Virus record (IMG/VR): IMGVR_UViG_3300011906_000002
Coordinates: 62,001-126,000 of that record
Length of the DNA stretch: 64,000 nt
DNA from: an uncultured virus (IMG/VR IMGVR_UViG_3300011906_000002)
Taxonomy: Duplodnaviria; Heunggongvirae; Uroviricota; Caudoviricetes
Reading direction: 5' to 3' (one strand)
Part shown: positions 15,326-57,826 of the stretch, in pieces
Layout of the letters: every line of letters starts with the position of its first letter
Numbering within the stretch: position 1 is the first letter of the stretch
Notes under the pieces: model-generated
Told to the model about the DNA's origin: nothing
The model's database searches: none
The model's input: only the letters and a program-made list of their open reading frames with translations
Position numbers and translations under genes: made by a program

Positions 15326-17308
15326 AAGACTCATACCCACAGATTTAGCTGAGATCAAGCGTGCTGGAGAGCTACCCATAATCCAGTTAGTGAAGTGAGA
15401 AGCTGAGAACCAGGTGTTCATGGCACTGAACTGACGCGTCATGTTGATGCGCAGCTTTTGCATGGCGTAAACCTGTTCAGTCAAACTCAAGCTGGAGAGG
15501 GTCGCCAAGTAGTCTGAGTAAACACTGTCTGAGTCAAAGAAGCCTTTGGCAAAGTCAGTACCGGCCGCTAGACCCAGTGCACTACCTGCTCGTCCTAAGA
15601 AGCCTGTTGCACTACTACTCACAGAAGCTGCACGAGCCACCAGTCCTGCCGCCCCTGCCAACTCTACGGCGTCGCTGGTATCAAAGCCTGCAGTGATGGG
15701 CATGTGCATGATGGATGACATGTCCATGACGCTGAAGCTGACGTTGATCCCCAATGGCTTCATATCACGCGTCCAACCCAAGTTACCTTCACCTCGACTG
15801 ATTTGAAGGTTTTGGATCATCCCCAGACGGGTTTGGGTACGCCCTTTGTCATACACCTCACACAAGAACGGACTGGTGTAGGATTGCTTACCAGTAGAGA
15901 TCGGTAGGCTACCTGCTAACAGCATGCTCAAGGGGATAAACAGGTCCGTGAAGCGACTGTAGTCATTTCCGTAGGGGGTACGCAGCTTGATCTGATAATC
16001 CGCCTTAGGGAGGTCCGCAGACGAGCTGTCCCACATCTTTGGAATGTCGGCAATCGCAGAACCTGAGAACGCCAACAACCCTTGTAGGTTCACAGCGGAT
16101 GCCAAACCTTCTAAGTAGGCACCACCCATCTTAAGCATGTCGTCGATAAACGCAATGCCGGTTTGACCGTCGGCTGAACTGAATCGCGCTTGACGGGCAC
16201 CGGAAGATAGACCATTCAACTTACTGGAAATCTCAGGTTCGGTCGCACTGTTACTGAACGATTCTGAAACCGTACCTGTGTGCTCCACGTGGAAGGTGAC
16301 GAACTGAGAACCGTCTTCGTATTCAGCTTCAAAGAACCGAGCCGTCTTTTCGGTGAAGGACATCTTCTTGCCCACCACATCCACCGCCCCGTTGTCTTCA
16401 TTCTCTCCTTTCTCATTCAGAGAGTGCCAAGACTTAAGGTACGCTTCGTAAGATTCAAAGCCGCGCTGGGTGTTGGTGTAGCGACCTGAGTCCACCATCG
16501 CTTGGATCTTAGCTTGAACTGCTTCGGCACTCTCCCCAGTTTCCAAGGCTTTGTTCAGTTCACGACGTTGTTCATTCGCCAACCGTTGTGCCCGTGAAGC
16601 CAAGGAGTAGACATCAATCTCACCAGACTCGTGCCAAATCTCAGGGTTGAGTTTCTGGTAACGTTTACCAATCGCCGCAGTGTATTCGGGCTCACCTTTA
16701 ACAGTAGCCTTTTCTGCATTGGCCATAATGCGTGGAACCAGACCCATGTTCACTGCAATACCGTTAGCGATGGTGTTCACAGCGTTCCAGTACAATGGCA
16801 TCGTTGGCTTCAAGTAGTAGTACTTGGAAGTGTCACGACCCATCAGAAATTGCAACGCAGCACCGGCTGCGGTAAACAACTGAATCGGTAGAGGGAACAG
16901 GGTCCCCGTGACCTTACCAATCGAGAAGGCAAGATCATAACTTCGACCCGTACGTGCCATGCGTGCCGTTTGCGGGTTGAAGAAGTTGAAGAAATAGTTC
17001 AATAGTGAGTTGAACTGAGGGACGCCAAAACGCATGTGGATCAGCTGTGCGCTGTCGTCAATCGCTTCGCTGTAGTACCGCCCCATGCCTTTAGAGCCTG
17101 AGAACAAACTCGGTACGGGAATGTCAGCAAAGCGGGTGAATTGATAGGGTGGGTTAATGGCAAAGTTGCCGCCCACAGTGGTGTCGGTAAATTTGAACCG
17201 TGCATCACTCAGTGTACGACGCAGTGCATCCGAATTGGAGATCGTGCGTTTGGGGAGCATGAACGACTGTCGAACCCAGTCCACGTCACGCAAAGGAGAA
17301 GTCGACAT
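15323..17308 (-). CDS. Virion tail/baseplate structural protein (phiKZ gp182-like)
   Basis: 661 aa, immediately downstream of the tape-measure/lysin gene. GAGG SD. Size and position match phiKZ gp182. Confidence 0.7.
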   Translation of the reverse strand: MSTSPLRDVDWVRQSFMLPKRTISNSDALRRTLSDARFKFTDTTVGGNFAINPPYQFTRFADIPVPSLFSGSKGMGRYYSEAIDDSAQLIHMRFGVPQFNSLLNYFFNFFNPQTARMARTGRSYDLAFSIGKVTGTLFPLPIQLFTAAGAALQFLMGRDTSKYYYLKPTMPLYWNAVNTIANGIAVNMGLVPRIMANAEKATVKGEPEYTAAIGKRYQKLNPEIWHESGEIDVYSLASRAQRLANEQRRELNKALETGESAEAVQAKIQAMVDSGRYTNTQRGFESYEAYLKSWHSLNEKGENEDNGAVDVVGKKMSFTEKTARFFEAEYEDGSQFVTFHVEHTGTVSESFSNSATEPEISSKLNGLSSGARQARFSSADGQTGIAFIDDMLKMGGAYLEGLASAVNLQGLLAFSGSAIADIPKMWDSSSADLPKADYQIKLRTPYGNDYSRFTDLFIPLSMLLAGSLPISTGKQSYTSPFLCEVYDKGRTQTRLGMIQNLQISRGEGNLGWTRDMKPLGINVSFSVMDMSSIMHMPITAGFDTSDAVELAGAAGLVARAASVSSSATGFLGRAGSALGLAAGTDFAKGFFDSDSVYSDYLATLSSLSLTEQVYAMQKLRINMTRQFSAMNTWFSASHFTNWIMGSSPARLISAKSVGMSL

Positions 17309-26266: not shown

Positions 26267-26307
26267 GGTTGCCAGGCCCCTTTGTTTGATTCTAAGGAAA
26301 ATGATCC

Positions 26308-34663: not shown

Positions 34664-34684
34664 CTATATTACCTATTCGAATAG
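34664..34684 (+). promoter_or_regulatory. phiKZ-type early promoter
   Basis: CTATATTAC-N6-GAATAG with AT-rich upstream. TATATTAC is the established phiKZ early consensus. Confidence 0.8.
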
Positions 34685-35788: not shown

Positions 35789-35809
35789 CTATATTACCTA
35801 TGTGAAGAT
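35789..35809 (+). promoter_or_regulatory. phiKZ-type early promoter
   Basis: CTATATTAC-N6-GAAGAT. Confidence 0.7.
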
Positions 35810-37889: not shown

Positions 37890-37930
37890 ATACTAAAAAA
37901 GCAACACTAACCTTAAACTGGAGCAAGACC

Positions 37931-38461
37931 ATGACCGAGTTTCATGACATCATCACTCAGACCGATGCGGAGAGAGCTGCTGAAATCGATGCAGGTATTC
38001 TGGCGCGCGAACGATTGGAAATCAAACGCTTTAAACGCGCTAGGACACTGACGCGCATCTTGACGTGTTTCCTAATTACGCTGGTGGGTGGATTCTCAGC
38101 TGCAGGTTATACTGCTTACGTTGAATTGAATAAGCCTGGGGTGCGTTACACCGACTACCGGGAATGTAAGTACGAAGATCCCGACCAGAAGCTTGAGTTA
38201 ACAGGCAAACGTGAGTACTCGTATTTGCAGAAAGAGTTCTTTGGTTTGCAGTATCGCCAAGGCAATCAGGTTACCGAACAGACAGTGATGAACGTGCGTG
38301 GTAACTCGATGTCTATTGTGGGCTTGAGTAAAGAGGCTTGGAAGTCCATCTACGTAGGCGAAGGGGAACAGGGGATACAGATCCTGATGCCTGCAGAACT
38401 TTACGTAGTCACCCTGGGTAAAAAGACTGCGGTGTTTAACTACGCCGACTTCTGTAAGTAA
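37931..38461 (+). CDS. Single-pass membrane protein
   Basis: ATG 37931 with GGAG SD. TM segment ILTCFLITLVGGFSAAGYTAYV follows a basic patch. Confidence 0.6.
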   Translation: MTEFHDIITQTDAERAAEIDAGILARERLEIKRFKRARTLTRILTCFLITLVGGFSAAGYTAYVELNKPGVRYTDYRECKYEDPDQKLELTGKREYSYLQKEFFGLQYRQGNQVTEQTVMNVRGNSMSIVGLSKEAWKSIYVGEGEQGIQILMPAELYVVTLGKKTAVFNYADFCK

Positions 38462-38466
38462 TACAA

Positions 38467-38508
38467 GCACTCCCAGGGGCTTCGGCCCTTGGGAGTGCGT
38501 TATGCCCG
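38467..38508 (+). terminator. Hairpin + TATGCC element
   Basis: GCACTCCCAGGGGC-TTCG-GCCCTTGGGAGTGC-GTTATGCCCG. Confidence 0.75.
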
Positions 38509-38518
38509 AAATGCTAAT

Positions 38519-38603
38519 TAAAATTTTTTCAGATCTATATTACTCTTGTGAATAGGATACAAAATCTTGTATCCAATACCCCTGGATTCTTAGGAGAATC
38601 AAC
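38519..38603 (+). promoter_or_regulatory. Early promoter + 5' stem-loop + SD-hairpin leader module
   Basis: TTTCAGATCTATATTAC-N6-GAATAG, then GGATACAA-AATC-TTGTATCC, then GATTCT-TAGG-AGAATC. Homologous to 51476..51561. Confidence 0.85.
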
Positions 38604-38861
38604 ATGAACACTACTCAAGCTCAAGCTGTACTGGAAACTGTTAAGCGCACTGGTCTGAACGACACCATGGCTACAGAACTCCACATGGTTAAAGACGTCC
38701 GTGACTTCAAGGTAGCTGGCGTATTCAACTACCCAGAAGGTCCTGAATTCGTTGTCATCTCCCAAGGTGAGAACGGTCGTTGGACCACCAAAGCTGAACT
38801 GATGTACGAAGGCGACACCGCCAAGAGCATGGCTGATGACCTCGGTCTCTACCTGCTGTAA
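38604..38861 (+). CDS. Early hypothetical protein
   Basis: 85 aa, AGGAG SD, strong codon bias. Confidence 0.7.
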   Translation: MNTTQAQAVLETVKRTGLNDTMATELHMVKDVRDFKVAGVFNYPEGPEFVVISQGENGRWTTKAELMYEGDTAKSMADDLGLYLL

Positions 38862-38926
38862 GCTACACCCTCTACAATACCAAGGGTCTTCGGACCCTAC
38901 CCCATAAGTTCTAAGGAGAACTAACC

Positions 38927-39082
38927 ATGCGTAACTTCATCCTGTATACCCTGATCGCTCTTGCTTGTGTAGGTACTGTCGTTCTGGCTGCTAAGACCAA
39001 TGATCGACTGACTCCGACCCAAGCTTGGGAGCAGAGCAGTAACTTGAAAGCTGAACTGCGTCAGCTTGAAAACAATAAGTAA
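38927..39082 (+). CDS. Small early membrane/secreted protein (51 aa)
   Basis: Below the ORF-track cutoff. MRNFILYTLIALACVGTVVLAAK...QLENNK, with AAGGAG SD. Confidence 0.7.
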   Translation: MRNFILYTLIALACVGTVVLAAKTNDRLTPTQAWEQSSNLKAELRQLENNK

Positions 39083-39114
39083 AACAACCTCACTCAAGTT
39101 TAAGGAATACGACC

Positions 39115-39363
39115 ATGACTTTCAACATCATCCGCGCTATCTCCATCGCAGCTGTTATCGGCACCATGATCTCTCTGTTTGCAGCTTACAACGTAACCAA
39201 GGATCTGACTTACAAGTCGCCGCTGAGCAATTGCTCGGGCGGCTTCTGCGACATGACTCAAACCAGCATCGACACCAACGGCTACTTCATCCAGACCACC
39301 GCTAAGGTGTGGGTCGGTGGATCAGTAGCCAGTCGTGACAACGATGGCATCACCCGGTTTTAA
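39115..39363 (+). CDS. Small early membrane protein
   Basis: 82 aa, N-terminal TM, CxxxxC pair, TAAGGA SD. Confidence 0.65.
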   Translation: MTFNIIRAISIAAVIGTMISLFAAYNVTKDLTYKSPLSNCSGGFCDMTQTSIDTNGYFIQTTAKVWVGGSVASRDNDGITRF

Positions 39364-39401
39364 TTCACGCTACACCCCCCCCAGTTCTTAGGAGAACACA
39401 C

Positions 39402-39758
39402 ATGAACAAGCAAATCGCCCTGAACATCGTAAAGAAAATCGTTGCTGACTACAAAGGTAGTGGTCAAGGTAGTATCGTACTGAACAACTTCGCTTTAGAG
39501 GTTAAAGGGGAAGGCAAGTTCAAGGTGGAATCGATCTCCATCAAGTGGGACTTCAAGAATGTCGACTTCTCCAAGGAACAAGGCACCCTCACTACCTCAG
39601 GCAACAGCACCCTCGAACTGTCGATCAAGGGTCTGAGTCTGGATCACCATAAAGGTGCTTGGAGCATCGGTGATATCCAGATTAATTCGGTTGACGAATT
39701 GAACAACCTCAGCCTGGTCCTGCCTTTGGAAGATCTGGCCGCATTCTTTCAGTCCTAA
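39402..39758 (+). CDS. Early hypothetical protein
   Basis: 118 aa, AGGAG SD in a hairpin. Confidence 0.7.
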   Translation: MNKQIALNIVKKIVADYKGSGQGSIVLNNFALEVKGEGKFKVESISIKWDFKNVDFSKEQGTLTTSGNSTLELSIKGLSLDHHKGAWSIGDIQINSVDELNNLSLVLPLEDLAAFFQS

Positions 39759-39783
39759 CCCCAGGAGTTCTTAGGAGAACGCC

Positions 39784-40161
39784 ATGACTTACAGCAACCC
39801 GAACATCAAAGCCCGTCACGAAGCTGCCATCAAACAGATCAAAGCTCAGAACGGCTTGATCGATGACCTGCATCGTCCCAATGGCAAAATCCAGATCAGT
39901 CACGTAGGGGTCTTCCAACAGAACCCGAACGCCAAGAACCCATTGCTGGTGGCGCTGTTGGATGGTGTCATGTTCTGCATCAACCACATCGACCTGACTC
40001 AGGAGAGACCTGCCTTGAGTCGTGAGTCCGTCGGCGGAACCATGGAGGCTATCAGCCTACCCATGATCGAACGTTGCCAACGCTATAACGATGAAGCTTG
40101 CACAATAGGCAAGTTCATTCAAATCGTTCATGTAAAGATTGACGCTGCGAAAGCGGCATAA
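39784..40161 (+). CDS. Early hypothetical protein
   Basis: 125 aa, AGGAG SD in a hairpin. Confidence 0.7.
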   Translation: MTYSNPNIKARHEAAIKQIKAQNGLIDDLHRPNGKIQISHVGVFQQNPNAKNPLLVALLDGVMFCINHIDLTQERPALSRESVGGTMEAISLPMIERCQRYNDEACTIGKFIQIVHVKIDAAKAA

Positions 40162-40237
40162 AAGAAGAAACCGGTGTAGGCACCTTTGGGTGTCTGCACC
40201 ATCATCAACGTAACACATTAACTAAAGGAGAAAACTT

Positions 40238-40447
40238 ATGTTTACAGTAAAGCAAACCCGCATCATCGAAAACTATAAAGAACTGCTCAAAGCTGGTCTG
40301 GATCGTCTGGTGGCTCGTACTATCGCCCTGCGCGTTTCGGCTGCAGTGATCCTGAACGTAGCAGTATCGGATCATGGCGTACACGTTGAACTGTACGAAG
40401 TAGCTGAACGCGAAGAGAAGACTATGGTCTTCCGCTTCGTGGCATAA
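40238..40447 (+). CDS. Early hypothetical protein
   Basis: 69 aa, AAGGAG SD. Confidence 0.7.
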   Translation: MFTVKQTRIIENYKELLKAGLDRLVARTIALRVSAAVILNVAVSDHGVHVELYEVAEREEKTMVFRFVA

Positions 40448-40493
40448 AAAGAAAGGGATTCTCACCCCTTTCTTTTTTTTTGCTTTTATGCCG
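40441..40493. terminator. Bidirectional terminator with GGCATA...TATGCC ends and a U-tract
   Basis: GGCATAAAAAGAAAGGG...CCCTTTCTTTTTTTTTGCTTTTATGCCGG, overlapping both convergent stop codons. Confidence 0.8.
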
Positions 40494-41727
40494 GCTGATC
40501 GCTTTTGATAGCCCGTGCCACCAACACCCGAGAGGCCAAGGCCATCTTGATGCAGCGGTCGGTTTCATCTGCCAGCGGTGAGCGGTAGTAGTGCGAGATG
40601 TGCTTGGAGACGGTGATCAATTGCTTAAGAGCTTTGATGTTGTTTGACGACAACGCAGAATTTTTCAAATCCAGTTGCTGTACAGACTTCATAACCCGGT
40701 CCAACGCACTGGCCATTTTGCGGTAAGTACCCCAACCACTGACAACCAGATCACAGTAACTTTCCGAACAGCCCAGCAAGGCCTCTAAATCGCTCGCTGC
40801 GAGCTTTGCGACATCAGAACGTTGTAGCGGCTTGCCTCCCCGCTCACGCACCACCTGCTTCGTTGCAAGGTCTGCTAGGTGTGCATAGCTGGCATCAATC
40901 CCACGGGCACGCGGACTGGGCTTTTTGGTGACAAACAACGAGGTGTTAAACAACAGCTCTTCGGTGAGAGGTATCTTCTTAGCAAAGCTCTCCACCGGAT
41001 GCGTCAGCGTCTGGATCTTAGCCATCACTGTGCGTTCGAATCCTTCATCAGAACTGAGGTCTGCTGAGGTGATCAGCTTGTGGTAAGCGTTAGCAAACGC
41101 CATTACCTGGGCAGGGATCACTTCCATCAGTACACTGGCTTGGGCCAAGTCCTTTTTCAAGGCGCTCACCAAATCGCGTACCGCACGCCCATCGCGGGTA
41201 AATGCGTTACCGACGTTCTTGCCCGACAGACTGACTTCAAGATTCCCTTTCACCGGCGCGGCCTTAAGCTTCTGACGCAGAGCCTGGGTGCGTTTGATGC
41301 CGGACTTGGCAGTGTGGATACTGCCCAACGAAACGTTCGACAGGGCTGTGATCACACTGGCGAAGTTATCGTTGTACGCCTTGCTGGTCATTTTGGCAAC
41401 GTTGTGCAAAGCCGGCATGACGCTGTCTTTGAAGTCTTCGCTGCTGTAGGTGTCACTCTCCAACGCCGGGAGGGTATTCAAAATACGTCCGGTTACCCCT
41501 TCCAGTGCTTGAATGCGTTCAAGGGCTAGAATTCCAACCCCTGGGTTTAATGCACCCATTTCGGAGAGGTGTTCGAGGGTGACTTCCAAATGATCCAATT
41601 CGTCAACGGTGTCGGCCAACTCCTCCATACTCACCAACCAGTTCTGATTGGTGTGAACAATCATCTGCAGTTGATCAATAGACAGGTTAGTGGGGCGCGC
41701 GTTGGTACGTGCCAATTTCTTCAGCAT
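40486..41727 (-). CDS. Internal head protein, paralogous family (phiKZ inner-head type)
   Basis: ~413 aa. Acidic N-terminal propeptide with SME/TLE/ALE sites; similar layout to 41780..43039. Confidence 0.6.
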   Translation of the reverse strand: MLKKLARTNARPTNLSIDQLQMIVHTNQNWLVSMEELADTVDELDHLEVTLEHLSEMGALNPGVGILALERIQALEGVTGRILNTLPALESDTYSSEDFKDSVMPALHNVAKMTSKAYNDNFASVITALSNVSLGSIHTAKSGIKRTQALRQKLKAAPVKGNLEVSLSGKNVGNAFTRDGRAVRDLVSALKKDLAQASVLMEVIPAQVMAFANAYHKLITSADLSSDEGFERTVMAKIQTLTHPVESFAKKIPLTEELLFNTSLFVTKKPSPRARGIDASYAHLADLATKQVVRERGGKPLQRSDVAKLAASDLEALLGCSESYCDLVVSGWGTYRKMASALDRVMKSVQQLDLKNSALSSNNIKALKQLITVSKHISHYYRSPLADETDRCIKMALASRVLVARAIKSDQPA

Positions 41728-41779
41728 GGGGATCACCTAAATGAGTGGTCAGGTAGGAGGAGCTACCTGTACCTAGGAG

Positions 41780-43039
41780 TTACTGGGCTGTGGCGATGGT
41801 TCGGCTGGCCAGAATCCGGATCGCAGGGATCAGGTTCTTGATGCGCAGCTGCTCGTGGAAGTACGGGGTTTTGGCGTAACGCTTCATACCACGTACAAAC
41901 TTCAACACTTGCTTGAACGCCTTCTTGTTGACTGGCGACAAACCGTCCACACTGTTTACCTTGTCGACTGTAGAGGCAAGGTTCTTAAATGCGCGCTGGA
42001 GCGGTACGAAACCGGTCTTGGCACTGATCAGGAAGTCGCAATACAGATCAGCGAAATCAAGCATTTTGTCGACGTCTTCGGTGCTGAAGTAGAAGTCTTC
42101 CAGAATGCCGCTGTTCATGTTCGACCAGGTCATGACGTATTCGCGCACGTGGGTGGTGACGCAGAGGTCAGCCAGGTCACGATAAACCTTATCGTCGCCT
42201 ACGGGTTTAACAGCACGCCCTTTCCAAACTTCCAGACCTTTGTTGGTCAGCAGGACGTTGCCTTCGCCAACACCCGGACCTTTAAAGACCTTGAAAGGGT
42301 GCTCGAACTGAGCCAACTTATCGAGGACGGTGCGCTTGAACTGCTCGTCGTTTTCGAACTTAGCGCTGTTCAAAACGCCGCGAACCTTTTCCAGATACAC
42401 GGCCAGATCTTTGGGATACTGGCGGTTGATGTAGCTGGCGTACTTGCTGTCGCTGGTCAGGTCTTCGAGTGGCGTCTTGGAGATCCGGCCATCGATACGA
42501 AACATCTGTGGCAAGTAGCTACCGGCCATCGATGCCTTGTGACGCTTTTCATTGAGGGAGGGCTTCTTATCCTTCCACTCTTGGCGCAGCTTGTGGTGGC
42601 GACGTTTCTGACGAGAGGCCCAACCTTCAGACGTACTGAAGAAACGAATGTAGGCATCCCATTCCATCTGGAAATCAGCCACGATCACTTGTTTGATGCG
42701 GTTCCAGAAACCACTGACCGCTTCCATCGAGACCTGTACGAACATCTCTGGATTGTCGTTGTGACTTTCCAGTGAAGCCACAGGGGCTTCCATGTTAATC
42801 CAGTCGCCGATGTTTTGCAGACGTGCTTGAATCATGAACATCTCAGGGCCGCTGATCGATCCCTGTGTCCGAACAACTTCGAGTTGGTCTTCAACTTCCT
42901 CGAGTTCTTCCATGGCCAATTCCAGCTCATCGCCTGTGGCCATAGCCGCAAGTACGTACTCACTGGAGTCGTGAAGCTCTTCGATGCTGTATGTCCCTAC
43001 AGGACTTTCCTGCGCATCTTTGAAAAGATCGGCAAGCAT
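41780..43039 (-). CDS. Internal head protein, paralogous family (phiKZ inner-head type)
   Basis: 419 aa. Acidic propeptide, ASLES and VSMEA sites followed by GFWNRIKQ, the pattern typical of phiKZ-like processed head proteins. Confidence 0.65.
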   Translation of the reverse strand: MLADLFKDAQESPVGTYSIEELHDSSEYVLAAMATGDELELAMEELEEVEDQLEVVRTQGSISGPEMFMIQARLQNIGDWINMEAPVASLESHNDNPEMFVQVSMEAVSGFWNRIKQVIVADFQMEWDAYIRFFSTSEGWASRQKRRHHKLRQEWKDKKPSLNEKRHKASMAGSYLPQMFRIDGRISKTPLEDLTSDSKYASYINRQYPKDLAVYLEKVRGVLNSAKFENDEQFKRTVLDKLAQFEHPFKVFKGPGVGEGNVLLTNKGLEVWKGRAVKPVGDDKVYRDLADLCVTTHVREYVMTWSNMNSGILEDFYFSTEDVDKMLDFADLYCDFLISAKTGFVPLQRAFKNLASTVDKVNSVDGLSPVNKKAFKQVLKFVRGMKRYAKTPYFHEQLRIKNLIPAIRILASRTIATAQ

Positions 43040-43097
43040 GGTGCACCTATCTTAAAGGGTTAAATGGAGGGTTCATTAAATAGCGATGTCTGATAAC

Positions 43098-43130
43098 AGC
43101 ATAAGCGGCAGGCCGAAGCCCACCGCTCAG
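43098..43130 (-). terminator. Hairpin + TTATGC element after the tail tube gene
   Basis: Minus strand AGCGGTGGGC-TTCG-GCCTGCCGCT-TATGCTG. Confidence 0.6.
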
Positions 43131-43138
43131 CTCAGGGG

Positions 43139-44008
43139 TTAGAGGACAGCCGCAGCTGCGATCTCTTCCATCTGTTCGGAGTAGCCATTGCCGTCGGCGC
43201 CAGCTGCTTCGACTTCCGCGTCGATCTCGGTGATGAACGCTTGACGCAGGTTCTGGTTAGCACCAGTGAGGGTCATGCGGTCCAGGAATTCCTGAGCCAA
43301 CAAGTCCACACCTTCGCCGACCTGAGTCAGTGCGGTGAATTCAACGGTGTAATCCGTCTTATCACCACCAGCGGTCAATTCACGACGACCTTGGATCTCG
43401 GCCACGGTACCGTTCGGACGCATGTTGGTCGACAACCACGACGTAATCACTTTGGAGTGAGTCGGATCGGGTTCGATGAACAACACAGTCATCCCGGTGT
43501 AGTCAGGAAGCAGGTCAACCGGACGGTTGGCAAGCTTGACCACGCGGGGGTACTTGGTTTCCGGGTCCATGATCAGGTTGAGTGTCCAACCGTTCAGGAA
43601 GTTGGCAACCGAGCGACCGTACTTCTCGTTCCAGGTGAACGACGGCGTTGAACGCTGGCGAGTGACGTTGGTGATGTCTTGTTGCATCTCACCAGCACCA
43701 CCGAACGGATTCTCGCTGTGCTCAACCGAGAGGGTCTGGTTCAACCCTTCGATGGTCAGCGGAGCCAGTTCGACCAGGTTCTTCAACGTAGCAACCCAGT
43801 ACTCTGGATCTTCGAGATCCTGGAACCCACGCGGTGCCTCGATGAGGATCGTAATCAGGTTCCGGCGGATGTACGAAGCGTTCGATACGTACGCATCGAA
43901 TACCGGAGCATGGCCCATTTGACCACCCTTACGGATGTCGACGGCGGGCGCTTGACCGTACTGATTGAACCCCTTGTTGTCAAGGAGCGTATCTGCTAGG
44001 CGGCTCAT
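43139..44008 (-). CDS. Tail tube protein (phiKZ gp30-like)
   Basis: 289 aa, directly downstream of the sheath gene (ATGA overlap). Size and position match the phiKZ tube. Confidence 0.8.
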   Translation of the reverse strand: MSRLADTLLDNKGFNQYGQAPAVDIRKGGQMGHAPVFDAYVSNASYIRRNLITILIEAPRGFQDLEDPEYWVATLKNLVELAPLTIEGLNQTLSVEHSENPFGGAGEMQQDITNVTRQRSTPSFTWNEKYGRSVANFLNGWTLNLIMDPETKYPRVVKLANRPVDLLPDYTGMTVLFIEPDPTHSKVITSWLSTNMRPNGTVAEIQGRRELTAGGDKTDYTVEFTALTQVGEGVDLLAQEFLDRMTLTGANQNLRQAFITEIDAEVEAAGADGNGYSEQMEEIAAAAVL

Positions 44009-46062
44009 TGTTCGAGGTCCTCACGACGGCGGGCTACGATAGTGAACGAGCCCACGGTTTTCATGTTGTTGCCGTACATCACGATGTTGCAACCCCAGCT
44101 GAAGCCACGCTGCTTATCGGCTTCGGACACGAAGGTATCCGGGACGATCACAACACGGTTGTCGAAGCGGCCTTTAACAGCTTCTTCGATCAGACGGTTC
44201 GAACGGGTGATGAACTGGTTCTCGGTCAGACCGGTGATACCAGTCAACTGACGCCAGGTGATTTCAGCAACCTTTTCCAGTTCGACAGCGATCAACATAT
44301 TGAACACGGAGTTCAGGATGCTGGTGTCGTCGTCGTACACGGTTTGCAGACCAGGGAAGAACTGGCTGCGGCGGTCGAAGTTCTGTACCCACACCAGACC
44401 TGCGTCCCAATCCTTGCTGCGTGCGTTGGCCTTTTTATAGGTCGCATTCACATCACGGAACATGGTGACTTGGTTGGCTGGGGAGATGTCGAACTTGGCA
44501 CGCGACTTCCAGACGCCGTCGCCGGCACCCATGTACGCAGCGCACTTGTCCGCCAGCTCGATGGTCAGCGGAGTCAGGTTTTTCCACTTCGAGTTCACGA
44601 GGTAACCCGAGTGACCGACCACTACCGCGCGGCAGCACGAAGTTCCGTAGATTTCCGATTCTGGGTACATGCGAGCAGCGGTACGCAGGGAAACGGCGAT
44701 CGAGGATTCTTCGGAGTTGCTGTTCTGCGGCTGAGACGCATCTTGCGTCGACAGGAACACAGCCATGTCTTTACGACGGCCGAGTACGGTCAGCAGCTTC
44801 TTCTTGGTTTCCAGACCGAAGCCTGAGTCCCAGATGCAAGACTGCGGATAAACCGCGCTGTCGAGGAAGTGGAATTCGCCTTCACCGTAGTTGGCGCAGA
44901 TGTCGCCGACCAGACGATCGAAGGTTTCGAAATCCATGGTGCCGTCAGCACCACCACGGGCATAGTGAGTCGAACTTTCGTTCAACAGAACACCGCCAGC
45001 GGAAGGACCTTCGATCTGCAGACTGTGATACGGAGTACCGTTGTAGTCATGACCACCGATGAAGTTGACCATGTGCAGGTCTTCTTCGGCATCGGACACG
45101 AGCCCGAAAGGACTTTCGGTTGCCTGGAGCAGCACCAACAGGTCTTCGATGTTCTCGAGATAGACGTGTTGATCATCAATCAGACCGATTGTCGGTGGCA
45201 GACCGTTGCTAGCCGATTCGTTCCAGCTTTGCAGCAGAACTTCGTCAACCGACATTTCGCTGTCAGTCTTGGCGTTGATCACACCAGGCTTGAACGCGAA
45301 GTCGATGAACTGGTCACCGGACAGGGTTTCTTTGACCACTGGCAAGCTGTTGGCAGAAGGACGTTCTACCAGGGCGAAGCGGTACATGTACGCGCGCGCA
45401 GCTTCGATCAGCTCGTCATCCACCGGGCTCGAGGAGTCGATGGTTGGCGAGGACAGACGAATACCAACGAGGTCACCGAACGAACCGTGCGACGATACAC
45501 GCTGAGCGATCATCGGGTACATGGTCGATTGGGCGCCGTCGCGGTCAGCCACGAGATTCCCGACGCGAGGCTCGAGTTCGTGCAGACCTTTGTTGGCTGG
45601 AACGCCTTCGATGACGTAACGTACGCGGTAGCCCGAAATGGTTTCGCCAGTCGGAATGCGCGCGCCATTGGCGTCAAGCAGGAAGCGGCCGTTTTCAGCA
45701 CGCTGGTAGTCAGGGATGTCATCCGCGACATAGTCAGCCCACAGGCTCAACGCAGCAATAGCGGCGTCATCGGCTACTACACGCTGGGCGACCATCATGT
45801 TGCCGCGAGCGTTAACAGTGTTGATCAGCACTGTCTGGTGAGTAGCGTACTTGGAGCGATAGTCGAACGACTCCGCACCATAAGTGGACATAAGGCTGTC
45901 ACCTACGACCACCTGAGGAACCAAAGTACCGCGCTGTGCAAAAAGAAACACATGCGGCATGTGAGTCGGACGGGCTTCGGGTTGATACACCGGAGCGCGA
46001 CCAGACTCGTCTTTGATACCGTTCAGGATGGCGCGAGGGGCAGCGTTTTTGATTGTAACCAT
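44005..46062 (-). CDS. Contractile tail sheath protein (phiKZ gp29-like)
   Basis: ~685 aa from ATG 46062 (GGAG SD). NAAPR...GIKDES N-terminus, WDSGF, YPESEIYGT and FPGLQTVYDDDTS motifs of phiKZ-like sheaths. Confidence 0.85.
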   Translation of the reverse strand: MVTIKNAAPRAILNGIKDESGRAPVYQPEARPTHMPHVFLFAQRGTLVPQVVVGDSLMSTYGAESFDYRSKYATHQTVLINTVNARGNMMVAQRVVADDAAIAALSLWADYVADDIPDYQRAENGRFLLDANGARIPTGETISGYRVRYVIEGVPANKGLHELEPRVGNLVADRDGAQSTMYPMIAQRVSSHGSFGDLVGIRLSSPTIDSSSPVDDELIEAARAYMYRFALVERPSANSLPVVKETLSGDQFIDFAFKPGVINAKTDSEMSVDEVLLQSWNESASNGLPPTIGLIDDQHVYLENIEDLLVLLQATESPFGLVSDAEEDLHMVNFIGGHDYNGTPYHSLQIEGPSAGGVLLNESSTHYARGGADGTMDFETFDRLVGDICANYGEGEFHFLDSAVYPQSCIWDSGFGLETKKKLLTVLGRRKDMAVFLSTQDASQPQNSNSEESSIAVSLRTAARMYPESEIYGTSCCRAVVVGHSGYLVNSKWKNLTPLTIELADKCAAYMGAGDGVWKSRAKFDISPANQVTMFRDVNATYKKANARSKDWDAGLVWVQNFDRRSQFFPGLQTVYDDDTSILNSVFNMLIAVELEKVAEITWRQLTGITGLTENQFITRSNRLIEEAVKGRFDNRVVIVPDTFVSEADKQRGFSWGCNIVMYGNNMKTVGSFTIVARRREDLEQ

Positions 46063-46273
46063 AACAGCTCCCGTGATCAAAATTGATCATTAATCGCGAT
46101 TAAAGGACCAAGCAAACCTACTCCTCGTCCAAGCCATGGTCTTATCAGAGGAGAAATAACTTGAATGGTATAGTTGCCGTACACTGATGTAGTACATCAT
46201 ACTATTCCAGCGACGAACTACATACCTACGTTTAGTAAACTTTTACGTCCCAGAAAACCAGGAGATCGAACAG

Positions 46274-47167
46274 ATGAAAGTCTCTCCATACGATACCAAG
46301 CCCTGCGCGTCGTATAACATGGCCGATACGCTCAAACACATTCGTTTGGCGTTTGTGGAGGGTACTCTCTACAAGCTTGAAGGCACTCAACTCCAAGACA
46401 TCTATTTGGTCTCGCCGCGTAATAAAGAGATCAAGCCTTTCACACATCCGGTAATGATCGACCATGGTGGTACCCAAGTCGTGGTCATTGATGCCCGTGC
46501 ATTGATCCGTGAAAACGGACCTACCTACAAGGTGGCTAACCACACCGAGTTCCAGTTCAACGTGACCCGTGCAGCGTTGACGCTGTATGCACACCGCCAT
46601 TCGATGGAAGACATCGGCAACCTTGGCGATCTGGGACTGACTGTCTTTTCCCGCTACATCGCTGAGAACATCACGCGGCGTTTGAACCTCAACCCTGAGG
46701 AGCAGATGAAGCTGGCCATGGTCGCCTCTTTCTGGCACCTGTGTGGTATGCGCGAACTCACCGAACTGACTGAACGTGACCTGCAACGCATGGTTCCACG
46801 TATCGCTCGTTGCACCAAACTCAACGCCCAGTGGATCTTCGACAACATTGGCCCGATCCGCTACATGGACAATGTCAGCGACTTTGTCGCCGTGGTCAAA
46901 GAGCTGATTCCGAACCGTCGTTTGGAGCAACTCGATGTGGCGTTGTTGTACGCCATGCTTGGTGGCGGTTGGTTTGGTTTCAACGCTCGTGAAGTGGTGG
47001 CCGTTGGTTTGGAACACATCCCGACGTGGTACGCCATCATTTATTCGTCGTTGATTGACCGCAGCTTCCGTAAAGCGCCGATCGCCAACATCGTTCAAAT
47101 CAACGATCGCAATGGCGCTGGCAAACAGTTCACCATTAACTTGGCTCGCATGCTTGAGGTGCTCTAA
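46274..47167 (+). CDS. Virion structural protein (phiKZ gp28-like)
   Basis: 297 aa, AGGAG SD, divergent from the sheath gene; conserved synteny. Confidence 0.65.
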   Translation: MKVSPYDTKPCASYNMADTLKHIRLAFVEGTLYKLEGTQLQDIYLVSPRNKEIKPFTHPVMIDHGGTQVVVIDARALIRENGPTYKVANHTEFQFNVTRAALTLYAHRHSMEDIGNLGDLGLTVFSRYIAENITRRLNLNPEEQMKLAMVASFWHLCGMRELTELTERDLQRMVPRIARCTKLNAQWIFDNIGPIRYMDNVSDFVAVVKELIPNRRLEQLDVALLYAMLGGGWFGFNAREVVAVGLEHIPTWYAIIYSSLIDRSFRKAPIANIVQINDRNGAGKQFTINLARMLEVL

Positions 47168-49731
47168 TGTCTAACTTTCTGGCGATGCACGGAACTAAAC
47201 ATGTTTGGTGCACCCCAGATCAAGACTATCAACACATCTTCCAAGTTGCCCGTATCACTCGCGCCTTAGGCGTCAGTCGCACCTGTGCAGTGGAATGGCA
47301 AACCATTCCTTTGCCGAATCTGACCGACGTCTTTCACGTGTATTCGCTGGGACAGATTCATCCAGGACACTTAGGCTTGTCTAACAAGCAGAAGGTCTGG
47401 CAACGGATGGATCAGATGGCGGGTATTGAAAACGTGACGGTGGCCCTGTACCACAAAGACGGTTTTGTGTTCCCTCGACACTTGGCCTACTTGATGGTGA
47501 TGGGTGATCGTAACGTCGTGGTGGCACTGCGGCAAATCGATGTGCTGAAAGCTCGTTACGTCCAACCCCTGTATGTGCGTTTTTACTCGAACGCTTTCTA
47601 CGGGTCCCAGCGTTCTGATGGTGTCTCAGAGACCATCGTGTGCAAAGGGTATACCCATTGGGGATCGACGCAAGATCTGGTCACGTTTCAAACACTGCGC
47701 AATACCTACCGAGACATGGTGGGCAAAACCCTGACCTTCCATAACGGCCAATACGTGGATGACGTACAGCCTGGGCGGATGATCTTGGGGGATGAAGCGG
47801 AGTTCTTTTATGATGCCTCGATTCGGCGTCAGGTGATCTTCAAGATCAAAGACCTGCAAACCTTCGACAGCGAGATCGATCAGAAGCGTAAGTTCCTGCT
47901 GTACCGGGACAAGGCTAATGCCGATGCTTGGATTGACTACCGCGACGACATTGACTTGTATCTGGTTAAGCGGGACAGTACCGGTCGATTCTCAGGGGTT
48001 TACTACCATCGTAATCGTGAAGACGCACTGCGCATGGTAACGCACAATGCGTACTCAGTCCCTGTGACCTATGTTCAGGGGTATGTGAACGATCATCCTG
48101 AGTGGACAGATATCAACGATTTGGAACTGCACCTGTTTATTCGGGAAGCCGGTTACAAACGTCCGTTGGTGTTTGAACACAACCGGTTGCACGAGCTATA
48201 CAAGCTGACAGACCAACAGATCCAAGAGGCCATGTTGGGGTTGGAGTCGGTGGTGCCAAACTGGCGTGCTGAAGCATTGGAGTCTTCGTGGTATACCGCA
48301 TTGATGCGGGTGCGTGACGGGCAGATTTCCTCAGAGATGGTTGAGAAAGCCTACGGCTACAACGCCATTACCCAGCTGGTGGTACCAACCCCTCAAAAGG
48401 TTGACCTGATGGCGGGTACGCGTTTTGTCAAAGTGCCGGTGGGTTTCTATGACCCTTCAACTATGCTCGAGTTTGATGCAGCGGGTAAGTTGCTTGGCTT
48501 TCATATCCACAACGGAGGTCAGTACTACAACCCCATCGAACGCAAGACGCGGATGATCGAAGCACACCGTGGTCTGGGCAGTAAACAGATCCATGTGTAC
48601 CACGGGTTGGATAGTCGTGCTTTGTCTGGACAGTACAACTACCGGTTTTACAAGTCACCGAAGTTAGCTGGAGTGGTCACTAAAGAATGGAGACCTGCTG
48701 TAGAGAACATCGATTACACCTTCGTCAATGGGGTCGTGACTTGGGCACTGGAAAGTGTGGGTTGGCAAGGGTTGGTGAAGTCGGATCAAACGCACCTGCT
48801 GTATGCGATGGATCTGGAGGCAGAGAGCGGCCTTTATCATTTCACACTTCGCAGCAGTGAGTTGCGAGACGGGGTCAACTTCATAGAGGGGGATCTGACG
48901 GTTAACCCTCGGCGAATCAGTCTCTGGCTCAACGGCTATGCATTGATCGAACACATCGACTACTACGTCAAAGGCACTAAGGTGGTACTCACCAATAAAG
49001 AGTATCTGGTACCTGGCACCCAACGCGTGGTGGTAATGGCTGAAGGGTTCTGTCAAGACGACATGTCCTGTGAACCTCAACCAGATGTGGGTTATGTAGA
49101 GTACGGTTTGCTCAGCATGAACCATACGGTCAACCTACGAGACGACAAGAACGTTCGAATCGTGGTGGGTGGGTGTGCCAAACACCGTTCTGAGGTGGCC
49201 TTCGTTGAGGACTACCCAGCTGTGGATTCGACCCTACTGTTGCAAAATGGCCGACCCTACCAAGTCGATGAGATCGTAAACCCGTTGGGTGTGTACACCC
49301 CGTCTGATACCTACGCGCTGCGTAAGCTGTCGCAGCCGGTGGATGTGGTGGTGGAGACCTACATCAACGGTAAACGGTCGCAGCCGACCTTGCCTGGCAT
49401 CAGTCCGATTCCAGATCGTTATCGGGTTTACAGTCCGTTCGTGGCGCGGGTATTGGATGACTTGGACCGTGGGGTATTGTGGGACGATCGAATGATTGGT
49501 CGTTACGACATCACGTTCATGCGCACCTTGCTCAAGCCGTATGAATGGTTGCTCGACTACGAACCCAGTAAGAACGCAATCGACGACCGTTATGTGGTGG
49601 TTCATCCTCACACGTACGACTCGGTCTTTGAGTTGAATATCTACAAGCTCACGTTTCTAAAGCGTGCAATTGAGTATTACCTCGACGACAAAGTTAACGT
49701 CAACCACTTTGTTTCCATCTCTGACGATTAG
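47167..49731 (+). CDS. Virion structural/baseplate protein (phiKZ gp27-like)
   Basis: 854 aa; VWCTPDQDYQ N-terminus; synteny. Confidence 0.7.
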   Translation: MSNFLAMHGTKHVWCTPDQDYQHIFQVARITRALGVSRTCAVEWQTIPLPNLTDVFHVYSLGQIHPGHLGLSNKQKVWQRMDQMAGIENVTVALYHKDGFVFPRHLAYLMVMGDRNVVVALRQIDVLKARYVQPLYVRFYSNAFYGSQRSDGVSETIVCKGYTHWGSTQDLVTFQTLRNTYRDMVGKTLTFHNGQYVDDVQPGRMILGDEAEFFYDASIRRQVIFKIKDLQTFDSEIDQKRKFLLYRDKANADAWIDYRDDIDLYLVKRDSTGRFSGVYYHRNREDALRMVTHNAYSVPVTYVQGYVNDHPEWTDINDLELHLFIREAGYKRPLVFEHNRLHELYKLTDQQIQEAMLGLESVVPNWRAEALESSWYTALMRVRDGQISSEMVEKAYGYNAITQLVVPTPQKVDLMAGTRFVKVPVGFYDPSTMLEFDAAGKLLGFHIHNGGQYYNPIERKTRMIEAHRGLGSKQIHVYHGLDSRALSGQYNYRFYKSPKLAGVVTKEWRPAVENIDYTFVNGVVTWALESVGWQGLVKSDQTHLLYAMDLEAESGLYHFTLRSSELRDGVNFIEGDLTVNPRRISLWLNGYALIEHIDYYVKGTKVVLTNKEYLVPGTQRVVVMAEGFCQDDMSCEPQPDVGYVEYGLLSMNHTVNLRDDKNVRIVVGGCAKHRSEVAFVEDYPAVDSTLLLQNGRPYQVDEIVNPLGVYTPSDTYALRKLSQPVDVVVETYINGKRSQPTLPGISPIPDRYRVYSPFVARVLDDLDRGVLWDDRMIGRYDITFMRTLLKPYEWLLDYEPSKNAIDDRYVVVHPHTYDSVFELNIYKLTFLKRAIEYYLDDKVNVNHFVSISDD

Positions 49732-49738
49732 GTGAGTT

Positions 49739-51418
49739 ATGTCAACTACCCCTATGGTGCCGGTGATCAACCCCGATCGGGGACATCGTCGCTGGCGTAA
49801 AACTGAAATCTACACAGGTCCGGACGGCACGGGCCGTTACTGCCCTAACTTGGACGATGAAGTCTGGGATTGGGCAACGGGTTTGTGGCGTGTGGCGAGT
49901 GTCGACTACACCACTGGTCTGTCGCGTTTGGTGCGCTATGAAGAACCGCTTGAAAGCGGGGCTATTACCGACGAAGACATTCTGTTGGGCGTAGGTCCTG
50001 GCTACCAAAGCGAATCGTACCGGGCGTTTATTGACACCTCTGTGGTTCCACACACTCTGGCGTTGGATTCGCGGTTGTCCTTTAAAGGCACCACGGTCGA
50101 TTACGTTAAAGTGTTCTTGGGTTCGGCGATTGGCGATGCTTCCAATGTGATCTCGTCGATGTATGACCAGAACGGCCAGCTCCTGGGGGAGAACATCCCG
50201 TTGGAACTGGTTCAGGTGCCTAACAACCCAGACGGACAGCCTTCGGCCTACAACATGGCGGTGAAGGTGCCGATGGCGGCGTACACGATGCGTCAGCTGC
50301 CGGACAACGAACCGTTGACGGTAGTGGCTTACGATCAGGTGGGTAACGTGCGGTCTATCGCTCGAGTGTTGGTGTGCAACACCGCCTTTGCTCGGACCAC
50401 TGATGCGTACCGCAAGTACATTCGTGCGATCCACCTGGAGTCACCGTTCTTGTCGGAAGTCGATCAGACGTTGCTTCAGTTCCCAATCAACCTACCGGTC
50501 TCGGCGTTGAATGCAATCGGTGTAGTGACCTACAGCGACAACAGTCAGACACGGATGGCTATTGACGGGTCGAAGTTCAACCTGTACGGACTGAACAACT
50601 ACATGGCGACGCAGCAGGGTCAGCGACTGGACCTGGTGTTGACCTACCGGTTGGGCGAGGATGAGTATTGCTACGGGGCTACGGCTAACCAAGGTAAGCA
50701 CATGTCGGCGGCGTACAAAGCCACTACCTTGCGTATGGACGGGGCGTATAGCGTTAAGTTGTTCTGCGCACCGGTGTGGGTGGACGGTGTTTACGGGTAT
50801 CGTCTGCGTTGGTTCTTGTTAAATCTGGACCGTGAAGAATGGTTCGAAGTTACAGGTCAAGTCTCAATGGCTGTGGGTTCGGCTGAATTCCGACCGACCG
50901 AATACGGCACTTTGCAGAACTTGACTGTGGGTATCAACATGAAAGACGTTGATCCTCAGTTCAAGAACTACCGTCATAGCCAGACCATTGGGTTGGTGCT
51001 GCGTCAACCGGATAACCTGGTCAGTGATGACCGCTGGGCCATCCGTTACACGCCGGGCCAGAACCCCATGTACGGTTCGGGTGTCAAAGCCTACTCGCGC
51101 ATGGAGAACGTCAACAACTGGAAGCTGGACCTCAGTAACGGTTTGAGCAACTACGCAGTATGGTTGGACCAAGTGTTCTACCGTGCTGAACCATTGTTCA
51201 ATCCATCTGTGGAACAACGTGCACCAGAGCCGACTCACTTCGCGCTCTACATCAACGGGGAGAACTTCGAGTACCCCTTGGAGATGTGGAACCATGAACT
51301 GGTGTCGCCACATGCGATCAAGACTGGGGAGCCTGTGATCATCCGCTTCTTCCGTCGTACCGCGGTGACCGATATCCAATTGGGTATGGGTGTGATGTAC
51401 ACCGAACAACGCAGTTAA
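49739..51418 (+). CDS. Virion structural/baseplate protein (phiKZ gp26-like)
   Basis: 559 aa; W...EIYTGPDGTGRYCPN N-terminus; synteny. Confidence 0.7.
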   Translation: MSTTPMVPVINPDRGHRRWRKTEIYTGPDGTGRYCPNLDDEVWDWATGLWRVASVDYTTGLSRLVRYEEPLESGAITDEDILLGVGPGYQSESYRAFIDTSVVPHTLALDSRLSFKGTTVDYVKVFLGSAIGDASNVISSMYDQNGQLLGENIPLELVQVPNNPDGQPSAYNMAVKVPMAAYTMRQLPDNEPLTVVAYDQVGNVRSIARVLVCNTAFARTTDAYRKYIRAIHLESPFLSEVDQTLLQFPINLPVSALNAIGVVTYSDNSQTRMAIDGSKFNLYGLNNYMATQQGQRLDLVLTYRLGEDEYCYGATANQGKHMSAAYKATTLRMDGAYSVKLFCAPVWVDGVYGYRLRWFLLNLDREEWFEVTGQVSMAVGSAEFRPTEYGTLQNLTVGINMKDVDPQFKNYRHSQTIGLVLRQPDNLVSDDRWAIRYTPGQNPMYGSGVKAYSRMENVNNWKLDLSNGLSNYAVWLDQVFYRAEPLFNPSVEQRAPEPTHFALYINGENFEYPLEMWNHELVSPHAIKTGEPVIIRFFRRTAVTDIQLGMGVMYTEQRS

Positions 51419-51420
51419 GG

Positions 51421-51464
51421 CGTCATAAACCTGTAGGGGGCAACCCCTACAGGCTTTTATGCCG
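51421..51464 (+). terminator. Hairpin + TATGCC element
   Basis: GTCATAAA-CCTGTAGGGG-GCAA-CCCCTACAGG-CTTTTATGCCG. Confidence 0.75.
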
Positions 51465-51475
51465 TAAGACCAAAT

Positions 51476-51561
51476 AAAAAAATTTCAGATCTATATTACT
51501 AACTTGAATAGAATACAAAAACTTGTATTCAACACTACCATAAGTTCTTAGGAGAACACCT
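51476..51561 (+). promoter_or_regulatory. Early promoter + 5' stem-loop + SD-hairpin leader module
   Basis: TTTCAGATCTATATTAC-N6-GAATAG, then GAATACAA-AAAC-TTGTATTC, then GTTCT-TAGG-AGAAC. Confidence 0.85.
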
Positions 51562-51975
51562 GTGGATAATGTTAATATCAATCGCTACTCACGCTTGTTG
51601 AACTTAACCTTAGGCGATACTCGTGATCTTCTTTTGAAGGTTCTCGATACAGCTTCTAAGGTACTGTACGGCCGCACTAACTTACTCATCCTAACCGATG
51701 GTGGGTTTAAGGTCTATGGGATTTCCTTTGATCACTACAAGATCATCTGGGAAGCTGATCGTGAAGAGATCATTACTGATCCTAACCAGATCACTCTGGT
51801 TAAGCGGATGCACATTGAGTTAAGTGGTTGGGAACTCAAACCCAATTCTTGGCACGAAGAACAATTGAATCAACTGCGTTCAATGTCAGCTCAAGACATG
51901 GTCCGAGCAGGACTGTGGATACAACGTAATGCTGTTGAAGAACCTATCGAAGAGGAGGTCGAAGACGACCTCTGA
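51562..51975 (+). CDS. Early hypothetical protein
   Basis: 137 aa, GTG start, AGGAG SD, acidic tail. Confidence 0.7.
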   Translation: MDNVNINRYSRLLNLTLGDTRDLLLKVLDTASKVLYGRTNLLILTDGGFKVYGISFDHYKIIWEADREEIITDPNQITLVKRMHIELSGWELKPNSWHEEQLNQLRSMSAQDMVRAGLWIQRNAVEEPIEEEVEDDL

Positions 51976-52007
51976 TCTATACCCTGTATCCCTAAGGAGG
52001 GAACACC

Positions 52008-57752: not shown

Positions 57753-57826
57753 CCTTATTAAAAAATATTAAAAACCTAAACTATATAAAGGAATCTTCAA
57801 CTGACCTTAACCTTAAGGACTACACC

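Follow-up and report, generated by a model that had tools for sequence, protein, structure and literature searches.

A short RNA hairpin that carries the Shine-Dalgarno (SD) sequence in and beside its loop was found immediately before the start codons of early genes in an uncultured virus, IMG/VR record IMGVR_UViG_3300011906_000002. The window analyzed here is a stretch of 64,000 nucleotides, bases 62001-126000 of this record, which is 223,076 bp long and has direct terminal repeats. The general form of the element was 5'-NNN-CU-[NNGG]-AG-N'N'N'-3', in which the SD core GG, usually with the preceding A, lies in the tetraloop, while the 3' arm, made up of the AG of GGAG and three further bases, pairs with the upstream arm. 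Our preferred, still tentative reading is that this cis-acting hairpin may be a self-contained ribosome-binding site (RBS) module of early mRNAs, which presents the SD and is confined to one phiKZ-like clade. The evidence for the element itself rested on recurrence, fixed geometry and covariation, not on folding energy alone.

The original prediction had named six hairpins, and all of them were found in the sequence, on the plus strand of the window. Four belonged to one operon, namely GATTCT/TAGG/AGAATC at 38585..38600 (28.6 bits in the covariance model described below), before ATG 38604 of an 85-amino-acid (aa) ORFan which is the first gene after the early promoter at 38536; AGTTCT/AAGG/AGAACT at 38907..38922 (31.3 bits), before ATG 38927 of a 51-aa open reading frame (ORF); and GTTCT/TAGG/AGAAC twice, at 39384..39397 (33.4 bits; ATG 39402, 118 aa) and at 39767..39780 (29.8 bits; ATG 39784, 125 aa). 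The other two were GTTCT/TAGG/AGAAC at 51544..51557 (29.1 bits), before GTG 51562 of a 137-aa ORF which is the first gene after the early promoter at 51492, and TCCCT/AAGG/AGGGA at 51989..52002 (28.7 bits), before ATG 52008 of a 53-aa ORF. The distance to the start codon was 3-5 nt in all six, and the ORFs opened were 51-137 aa long. With at most one mismatch, TTCTWAGGAGAA occurred 6 times in the window compared with 0.40 expected (100 shuffles, largest 2), and five of these matches were the predicted sites. The remaining one was a near-copy, TTCTAAGGAAAA, at 26290-26301 before a 1439-aa gene; it contained a stem mismatch (C opposite A), scored 9.5 bits and is probably not a member of the family.

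A covariance model was built from 77 non-identical related sites. As the original prediction had proposed, the window was scanned with such a model, and exactly the six sites were recovered at 28.6-33.4 bits with no others; the next-best score was 9.5 bits. Given the gap between 28.6 and 9.5 bits, the predicted list for the window is therefore complete. Rfam at gathering score gave no match in the 64-kb window.

The covariation of the stem was evaluated on eight related genome pieces; five related IMG/VR genomes and three further contigs were used for comparison, and the genome containing the window is called G000 below. In a non-circular test, sites were chosen solely by CTNNGGAG and a start codon that opens an ORF of 40 aa or more, and the next three outward pairs were then scored. 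All three further Watson-Crick pairs were formed at 97 of 193 CTNNGGAG sites before a start, compared with 17 of 518 sites without a start. Among unique 20-mers, 70 of 149 were paired, whereas 10,000 shuffles gave 9.85 on average (sd 2.62) and 19 at most. The distinct 3-bp outer stems numbered 20, and GTTCT/AGAAC accounted for 33 of the 70 unique paired sites. In the 77-site alignment each of the three outer pairs showed all four Watson-Crick types; because pairing was a criterion of selection for this set, its evidential value is limited to the variety of pairs, and the invariance of GGAG in it is partly due to selection. The sixth pair was at chance (19/77), and the helix was therefore taken as 5 bp. 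Compensatory changes were also detected at orthologous sites, where AGACT/AGTCT in G000 stood against AACCT/AGGTT in the relative G002, a case with two double changes, and a second pair was ATCCT/AGGAT against TTCCT/AGGAA. A further candidate, an orthologous G·U to G-C series at the gene of genome position 126648, failed once orthology was checked. The predicted stem covariation was thus borne out by the excess of pairing before starts, the 20 stems and the orthologous compensatory changes.

The whole of G000 (223 kb, 51% GC, 233 predicted proteins) was scanned for an NAGG loop between complementary arms, and 19 hairpin gene starts were obtained. In genome coordinates, the plus-strand sites were 15702, 16546, 100591, 100913, 101389, 101772, 113549, 113994, 126634, 126924, 131496, 153660, 158562, 173743, 174262, 174562, 175418 and 191091, and the minus-strand site was 40971. 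All 19 were on the coding strand, with the start codon 1-6 nt past the end of the stem. The stem was 5 bp, sometimes 6-8 bp, the loop was an NNGG tetraloop, and the 3' arm opened with the AG of GGAG. The stems included GTTCT, ATTCT, TCCCT, ATCCT, AATCT, GTACT, AGACT and GCCCT (with a terminal G·U), as well as CTTTT and one 8-bp stem with one U·G. GGAG was present at 18 of the 19 sites; at the remaining one, ACTTTT-AAGG-AAAAGT, GGAA replaced GGAG and the closing C-G was swapped for U-A.

Two details of the earlier description had to be revised. The loop had been described as a constant (T/A)AGG, and it proved more variable across the genome and in relatives, the 77 sites comprising AAGG (34), TAGG (18), GAGG (9), CAGG (6), ATGG (5), AGGG (2) and TTGG, TGGG and GTGG (1 each). 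The upstream tract, which had been called C/A-rich, was indeed of biased composition; the 9 nt before the stem contained 30% A, 36% C, 9% G and 25% T in the 77 sites, so that it is better described as G-poor than as strictly C/A-rich.

The GGAG sites of G000 with a start codon after them numbered 146, 40, 10, 5, 2, 12 and 5 for stem lengths from 0 to 6 or more bp, respectively, compared with 742, 137, 49, 35, 8, 2 and 1 for GGAG without a start, and the distribution at GGAG with a start was bimodal in every genome of the clade. When loops of 3-8 nt were all allowed, only the NNGG-loop geometry (two free bases, GG, then stem) was enriched and the others were at background. This geometry was counted 17 times in G000, 17 in G001, 15 in G002, 14 in G006 and 16 in G007, compared with 0 in G008 and 2 in phiKZ.

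The hairpin was closely associated with early promoters. In the window, the core TATATTAC, of phiKZ type, was located on the plus strand at 38536..38543, with cagatc and an A-tract upstream, and at 51492..51499; the former would drive the operon of the first four hairpins and the latter that of the last two. The identical 14-mer CAGATCTATATTAC was present in many jumbo-phage contigs, and the same TATATTAC core precedes phiKZ early leaders. In the text available on phiKZ and 201phi2-1, an AT-rich motif is described as the early promoter read by the virion RNA polymerase, and by analogy to these two phages the TATATTAC motif is considered a putative early promoter. Thirteen early-type motifs of the form (T/C)ATATTA(C/T) after an A-tract were found in G000. 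Hairpins were carried by 14 of the 26 genes that start within 1 kb after an early-type promoter and by 5 of the 207 others (Fisher p 8e-12), one of these five being miscounted owing to a spurious ORF call on the opposite strand. The predicted tie to early genes was thus supported. At all five 'cagatcTATATTAC' promoters the first gene carried a hairpin.

Most carriers were small ORFans without a family; the exceptions were a 754-aa RNA polymerase beta-like subunit, a 520-aa phrog_3209 protein and members of two other PHROG families without assigned function. None of the annotated capsid, protease, internal-head, sheath and tube genes carried the hairpin, and no model hit was found there, in agreement with the predicted absence at structural-gene SDs. 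Three more hairpin genes, including the phrog_3209 gene, lay directly behind a second, promoter-like motif, gatgTATA(A/C)TATCTACTGGCAA or GGTATAATA, at 131216-131240, 153633-153657 and, on the minus strand, 40978-40986 of G000:C1; this motif was kept in G001 and G002 and may belong to the middle class.

The phage itself was characterized by Pfam searches, in which its proteins matched the phiKZ-type major capsid protein, chimallin, a PhuZ-like tubulin, phiKZ internal head proteins, sheath, tube, a divergent family B DNA polymerase and pieces like RNA polymerase beta and beta'. This set of proteins therefore identifies it as a phiKZ-like, nucleus-forming jumbo phage. At the protein level, one virion protein matched jumbo phages of Xanthomonas, Ralstonia, Burkholderia, Pseudomonas and Erwinia, at 34-40% identity. 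A nucleotide search of a phage collection with 4 kb of the window gave no match, and the 118-aa early protein, used as a query for related loci, returned a single locus. Within the comparison, about 190-198 kb of G001 and G002 could be aligned to G000 at 78-80% nucleotide identity (amino-acid identity of G002 about 77%), and for G006 and G007, 143-144 of 232 predicted proteins were shared, with an identity of about 48%. More distantly, phiKZ had 83 proteins in common with G000 at 33.5% identity, and G008 had 50 at 28%. In public sequencing runs, 20 rows contained part of the stretch, all of them metagenome contigs. At least 65% of the sampled words of window 38400-42400 were present in seven public runs from four studies, all as contigs, under the labels marine plankton, soil, groundwater and marine metagenome.

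The covariance model gave 18 hits in G000, 13 in G002 and 12 in G006, compared with one each in G009 and PhiEaH1 and none in G008, phiKZ, LucasX, Xoo-sp14 and RSL2; among phiKZ early leaders the hairpin was present in 0 of 21. Counted over the jumbo phages tested, phiKZ and five of the six others were without the element, and the sixth gave a single weak hit. This distribution marks the element as an innovation of one clade which was retained in both of its subclades. Only 3-4 of the 19 carrier genes had homologues in G006 and G007, and those homologues had no hairpin there. The orthologous early operon could be compared in three genomes, at window 38536-40161, at 8689-9600 of L157 (G002) and around 765-300 on the minus strand of L188 (G005). 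In G002 the 85-aa gene is missing and the gene that is now first bears the hairpin; in G005 the 85- and 51-aa genes are missing and an 82-aa gene has taken the hairpin RBS. The element stays with the gene class and the position, not with individual genes.

The accessibility of the SD was then considered, with ensembles predicted on -40..+20 windows for the 19 hairpin genes and 211 others, 118 of which have a GGAG or AGGA SD. The median probability of being unpaired for the GG of the SD was 0.87 at hairpin genes compared with 0.17 at the others (p 2e-7) and 0.26 at the others with a GGAG or AGGA SD (p 4e-6), while the total minimum free energy (MFE) of the region was similar (-7.5 vs -9.0, p 0.41). 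In each of the six 60-nt stretches around the window sites, the MFE structure contained the hairpin. Hairpin energies ranged from -1.7 to -8.3 kcal/mol with a mean of -4.5, and the predicted duplex between SD and anti-SD was stronger, with a median of -8.6 kcal/mol (-6.5 at other genes). It had been supposed that a hairpin over the SD would hinder initiation; the predicted exposure of GG and the weakness of the hairpins relative to the anti-SD duplex argue otherwise, and the hairpin probably serves translation as a module and does not act as a brake on it. In RNA thermometers of the fourU or ROSE type, the SD core is sequestered by pairing and released by melting as the temperature changes; here GG lay in the loop, predicted to be largely unpaired as given above, and no sequestration of the core of that type was found.

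Taken together, the predicted exposure of GG, the weak hairpin, the stronger anti-SD duplex and the G-poor tract led us to read the element as a putative self-contained, SD-presenting RBS. A weak local stem (about -2 to -8 kcal/mol) would occupy the flanks of the SD, so that exposure of the GG core would not depend on the surrounding gene or leader. Nucleation with the 16S anti-SD could take place at the loop, and the anti-SD duplex (about -7 to -13 kcal/mol) would then displace the stem, while the unstructured G-poor tract would be where the 30S subunit lands or stands by. Early genes would in this way be translated rapidly and independently of context, immediately after injection. Such a device may suit a genome of 51% GC in which the other SDs are predicted to be mostly paired, and AT-rich phiKZ is without the hairpin. 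The module would also be portable, holding its promoter-proximal position as early ORFan cassettes come and go.

Several observations weigh against this reading. The folding-energy z-scores of the six 60-nt windows against shuffles were not significant (0.32, 0.75, -0.33, 0.48, -1.73 and 0.53), and the types of mismatch gave no strand signal, G·U/U·G and A·C/C·A being found 6 times each. Predicted GG accessibility was low in some contexts, 0.06 at genome position 174275 and 0.25 at 16559, and the function as a whole is inferred from predicted folding. Only 7 of the 13 early-type promoters had a hairpin at the first gene, and the chimallin gene, which follows an early-type promoter, was without it; the hairpin is therefore not required for early expression as such. 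Finally, the geometry was very strict, and although protein identity between the two subclades is about 48%, GUUCU/AGAAC was the most frequent stem in each of them. Neither feature would be needed for general insulation; both would suit a specific partner that recognizes the hairpin.

The original prediction had proposed a post-transcriptional regulon of early mRNAs; a regulon in the sense of a cis-element shared by these mRNAs was upheld. A trans-acting factor, either a later phage protein or a host protein, would recognize the hairpin and switch early mRNAs on or off together, by a logic comparable to that of T4 RegA or of coat-protein operators. The strict geometry with its fixed loop size, the modal stem common to both subclades and the limitation to one temporal class are all consistent with it. 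We nevertheless consider it rather unlikely, as conservation was limited to the SD (GGAG) and the CU pairing with it, loop positions 1-2 vary and 20 stems are tolerated. A phage translation factor, as originally suggested, may exist; Pfam recognized no RNA-binding domain, including S1, KH, CSD, CsrA and RegB, in the 226 of 233 predicted proteins that were scanned, most of which have no family, hence this is weak evidence. It is also unlikely, and slightly more so, that nucleus-forming jumbo phages have a dedicated post-transcriptional programme for which the hairpin is the address label. In that case a so far unrecognized factor of phage or host would read the CU-NNGG-AG tetraloop and would either recruit ribosomes preferentially to the first-wave mRNAs, made by the injected RNA polymerase, or jointly silence or cleave these mRNAs at the onset of the middle phase. 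As for a known host regulator, the binding hairpins of CsrA/RsmE present GGA atop a short hairpin overlapping the SD, in a hexaloop. The present hairpin likewise has GGA at its loop, and the core ANGGA was found in 43 of the 77 sites; however, its loop is a tetraloop, GGA is offset by one position from the register of those hairpins, and the A of GGA takes part in a base pair. The consensus CANGGANG and its longer form (A/U)CANGGANG(U/A) matched 0 of 77 sites, no phage CsrA was detected (no PF02599 match in the phage), and the repression of phage early genes by a host regulator would bring no evident benefit, so that the suggested binding of host CsrA/RsmA-type proteins appears very improbable. 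The other suggested route, an endonucleolytic cut within GGAG that would shut off early mRNAs in the manner of T4 RegB/S1, has in its favour the presence of GGAG at 18 of the 19 G000 sites, at early genes only, and of GGAGRAY, which resembles the first part of the strong-site consensus of T4, in 48 of the 77 sites. The T4 sites, as far as the available text describes them (PMC3014915), also lie as GGAG in the initiation regions of early genes, with an unpaired GG beside a constrained G. They are unstructured, however, and structure hinders RegB and protects from cleavage (PMC3014915, same portion), whereas here a hairpin is formed in which the A of GGA is predicted to be paired. No member of the RegB family (PF10715) was found in G000, G002 and G006 although the T4 regB control was recovered at E 1.1e-69, the full 11-nt consensus GGAGRAYARAA was present in 0 of 77 sites, and the invariance of GGAG in that set is partly a product of site selection; this reading is accordingly quite improbable.

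Two further explanations were considered. The motif might mainly be a repeat that spreads with, and shuffles, early ORFan cassettes, with the palindrome incidental or secondary, much as in the promoter-early stem-loops (PeSL) of T4-type phages, where, according to the text available (PMC2839356, PMC4122927), repeated motifs flank fast-evolving early ORFans and cassettes are gained or lost at the motif. The scarcity of G006/G007 homologues among the carriers (3-4 of 19, without hairpin there), the two cassette indels of the orthologous operon with their joints at the hairpin RBS, and the share of GTTCT/AGAAC among the paired sites agree with this. Just two indel events were examined, however, and a mere repeat would not retain pairing over 20 stems or show compensatory changes at orthologous sites; moreover, PeSL, as described there, consists of a promoter and a terminator-like stem-loop with no RBS, whereas the repeated unit here is the SD hairpin. 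As the main explanation it seems improbable, and a shuffling role is compatible with RBS function and may act alongside it. Alternatively, the perfect inverted repeat of 14-16 bp in double-stranded DNA could be an operator at which a dimeric repressor would block early transcription, and an Arc-like DNA-binding protein is encoded at genome position 203854. This idea is hardly credible because the half-sites covary rather than being conserved and every copy stands at SD distance from a start on the coding strand, including internal cistrons far from promoters; the centre (NNGG) is also asymmetric, and pairing was found at 97 of 193 sites before starts against 17 of 518 elsewhere. Two other candidates were dropped: an N4-like DNA-hairpin promoter, since the phage has multisubunit RNA polymerase genes and the constant bases are the SD at SD distance, and a pairing of the 5' arm with a fixed 16S segment, since the 5' arm covaries with the 3' arm.

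Compared with systems described before, the closest appeared to be the start-associated sequence (SAS) of Cluster K mycobacteriophages, and the present element may be regarded as a variant of such elements. In the portion of Pope et al. 2011 available (PMC3203893), the SAS is a 13-bp sequence containing AGGAG, present in 11-19 copies per genome, located 3-7 bp before starts in a single orientation in the non-structural half of the genome and often on different gene families. Its proposed roles are translation initiation or the binding of a host or phage product, a suggestion that speaks likewise for a trans-acting factor here, and its function is given as unknown in the text available from 2011 (PMC3203893) and still in that from 2025 (PMC12699233). 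Similarly, the present element is a short AGGAG-containing motif near the start in one orientation and in many copies (19 in G000, at 1-6 nt), and it is absent from annotated structural genes (capsid, protease, internal-head, sheath and tube). The outer bases of the SAS, as far as presented, are symmetric (GGG...CCC) with an edge of at most 3 bp and a conserved sequence, whereas a 5-bp covarying stem in 20 variants was found here. The SAS consensus GGGATAGGAGCCC had no copy at 0-1 mismatch in five genomes; at 2 mismatches it occurred once in G000, once in G001, 4 times in G002 and twice each in G006 and G007. The SAS belongs to mycobacterial siphoviruses, whereas the present phage is a phiKZ-like jumbo myovirus of a different lineage and host phylum, and unlike the SAS its element is tied to the early promoter class of the virion RNA polymerase. 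The present element is better supported as an RNA hairpin and is linked to a defined early promoter class. In the literature searched, no hairpin of this sort was described for jumbo phages, motif strings matched only unrelated coronavirus and human papers, and the available text of the phiKZ and 201phi2-1 transcriptome papers makes no mention of one.

Unstructured C/A-rich tracts are known just before structured RBSs, as standby sites or upstream translation enhancers; an enhancer with an ACA motif is the subject of PMC3879156. Cases of the general kind concern single genes or engineered constructs, whereas about 19 natural sites per genome share one architecture here.

Other features were observed around the early operons. 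The early promoters had the arrangement TATATTAC-N5-TGAATAG followed by a 5'-proximal stem-loop. On the plus strand of the window, the stem-loop GGATACAA/AATC/TTGTATCC was located at 38555..38574, between the promoter and the G-poor tract, as part of the conserved early leader, and GAATACAA/AAAC/TTGTATTC at 51511..51530, its stem differing from the former by paired changes. Leader stem-loops were also found at genome positions 15669-15690, 126600-126618, 173700-173720 and 191058-191078. Across promoters and relatives the leader stems varied by paired changes (GGATACAA/TTGTATCC, GAATACAA/TTGTATTC, AGACT/AGTCT, GGATT/AATCC and GACTAGA/TCTGGTC), and the structure is probably a 5'-terminal stabilizing hairpin of early mRNAs; in phiKZ leaders a 5'-proximal stem-loop is often present too. 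Two more early-type cores (cc-TATATTAC-cta) were located at window 34665-34672 and 35790-35797, and their first genes had no SD hairpin. GC-rich terminator hairpins followed by (T)TTATGCC lay just before the early promoters, at window 38466-38510 and 51428-51466, and resemble a terminator motif, conserved in phiKZ and ending in a TTAT tail, that is quoted in the available part of the Putzeys preprint. At many non-early genes the motif (A)ACCTTAAAC(T) was located directly upstream of the SD, for example at window 37905-37930 and 57795-57826, and may represent a promoter (middle or late) or an enhancer. At G000:C1:176920-177372, immediately past an early operon with four hairpin genes, a protein resembling staphylococcal nuclease (PF00565, E 1.6e-9) was encoded.

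The early genes of nucleus-forming jumbo phages need immediate translation, in competition with host mRNA and before the protective compartment exists, and beyond transcription little is known of control at this step of early translation. With a compact and portable RBS module, the reliable expression of an early ORFan set that keeps changing would be explained. If true, it would be a natural design of a context-insulating RBS, and the element lends itself as a tractable model for studying the start-associated sequences, so far unexplained, of other phages. Should the hairpin instead have a trans-acting reader, temporal control in this family of phages would gain a new layer.

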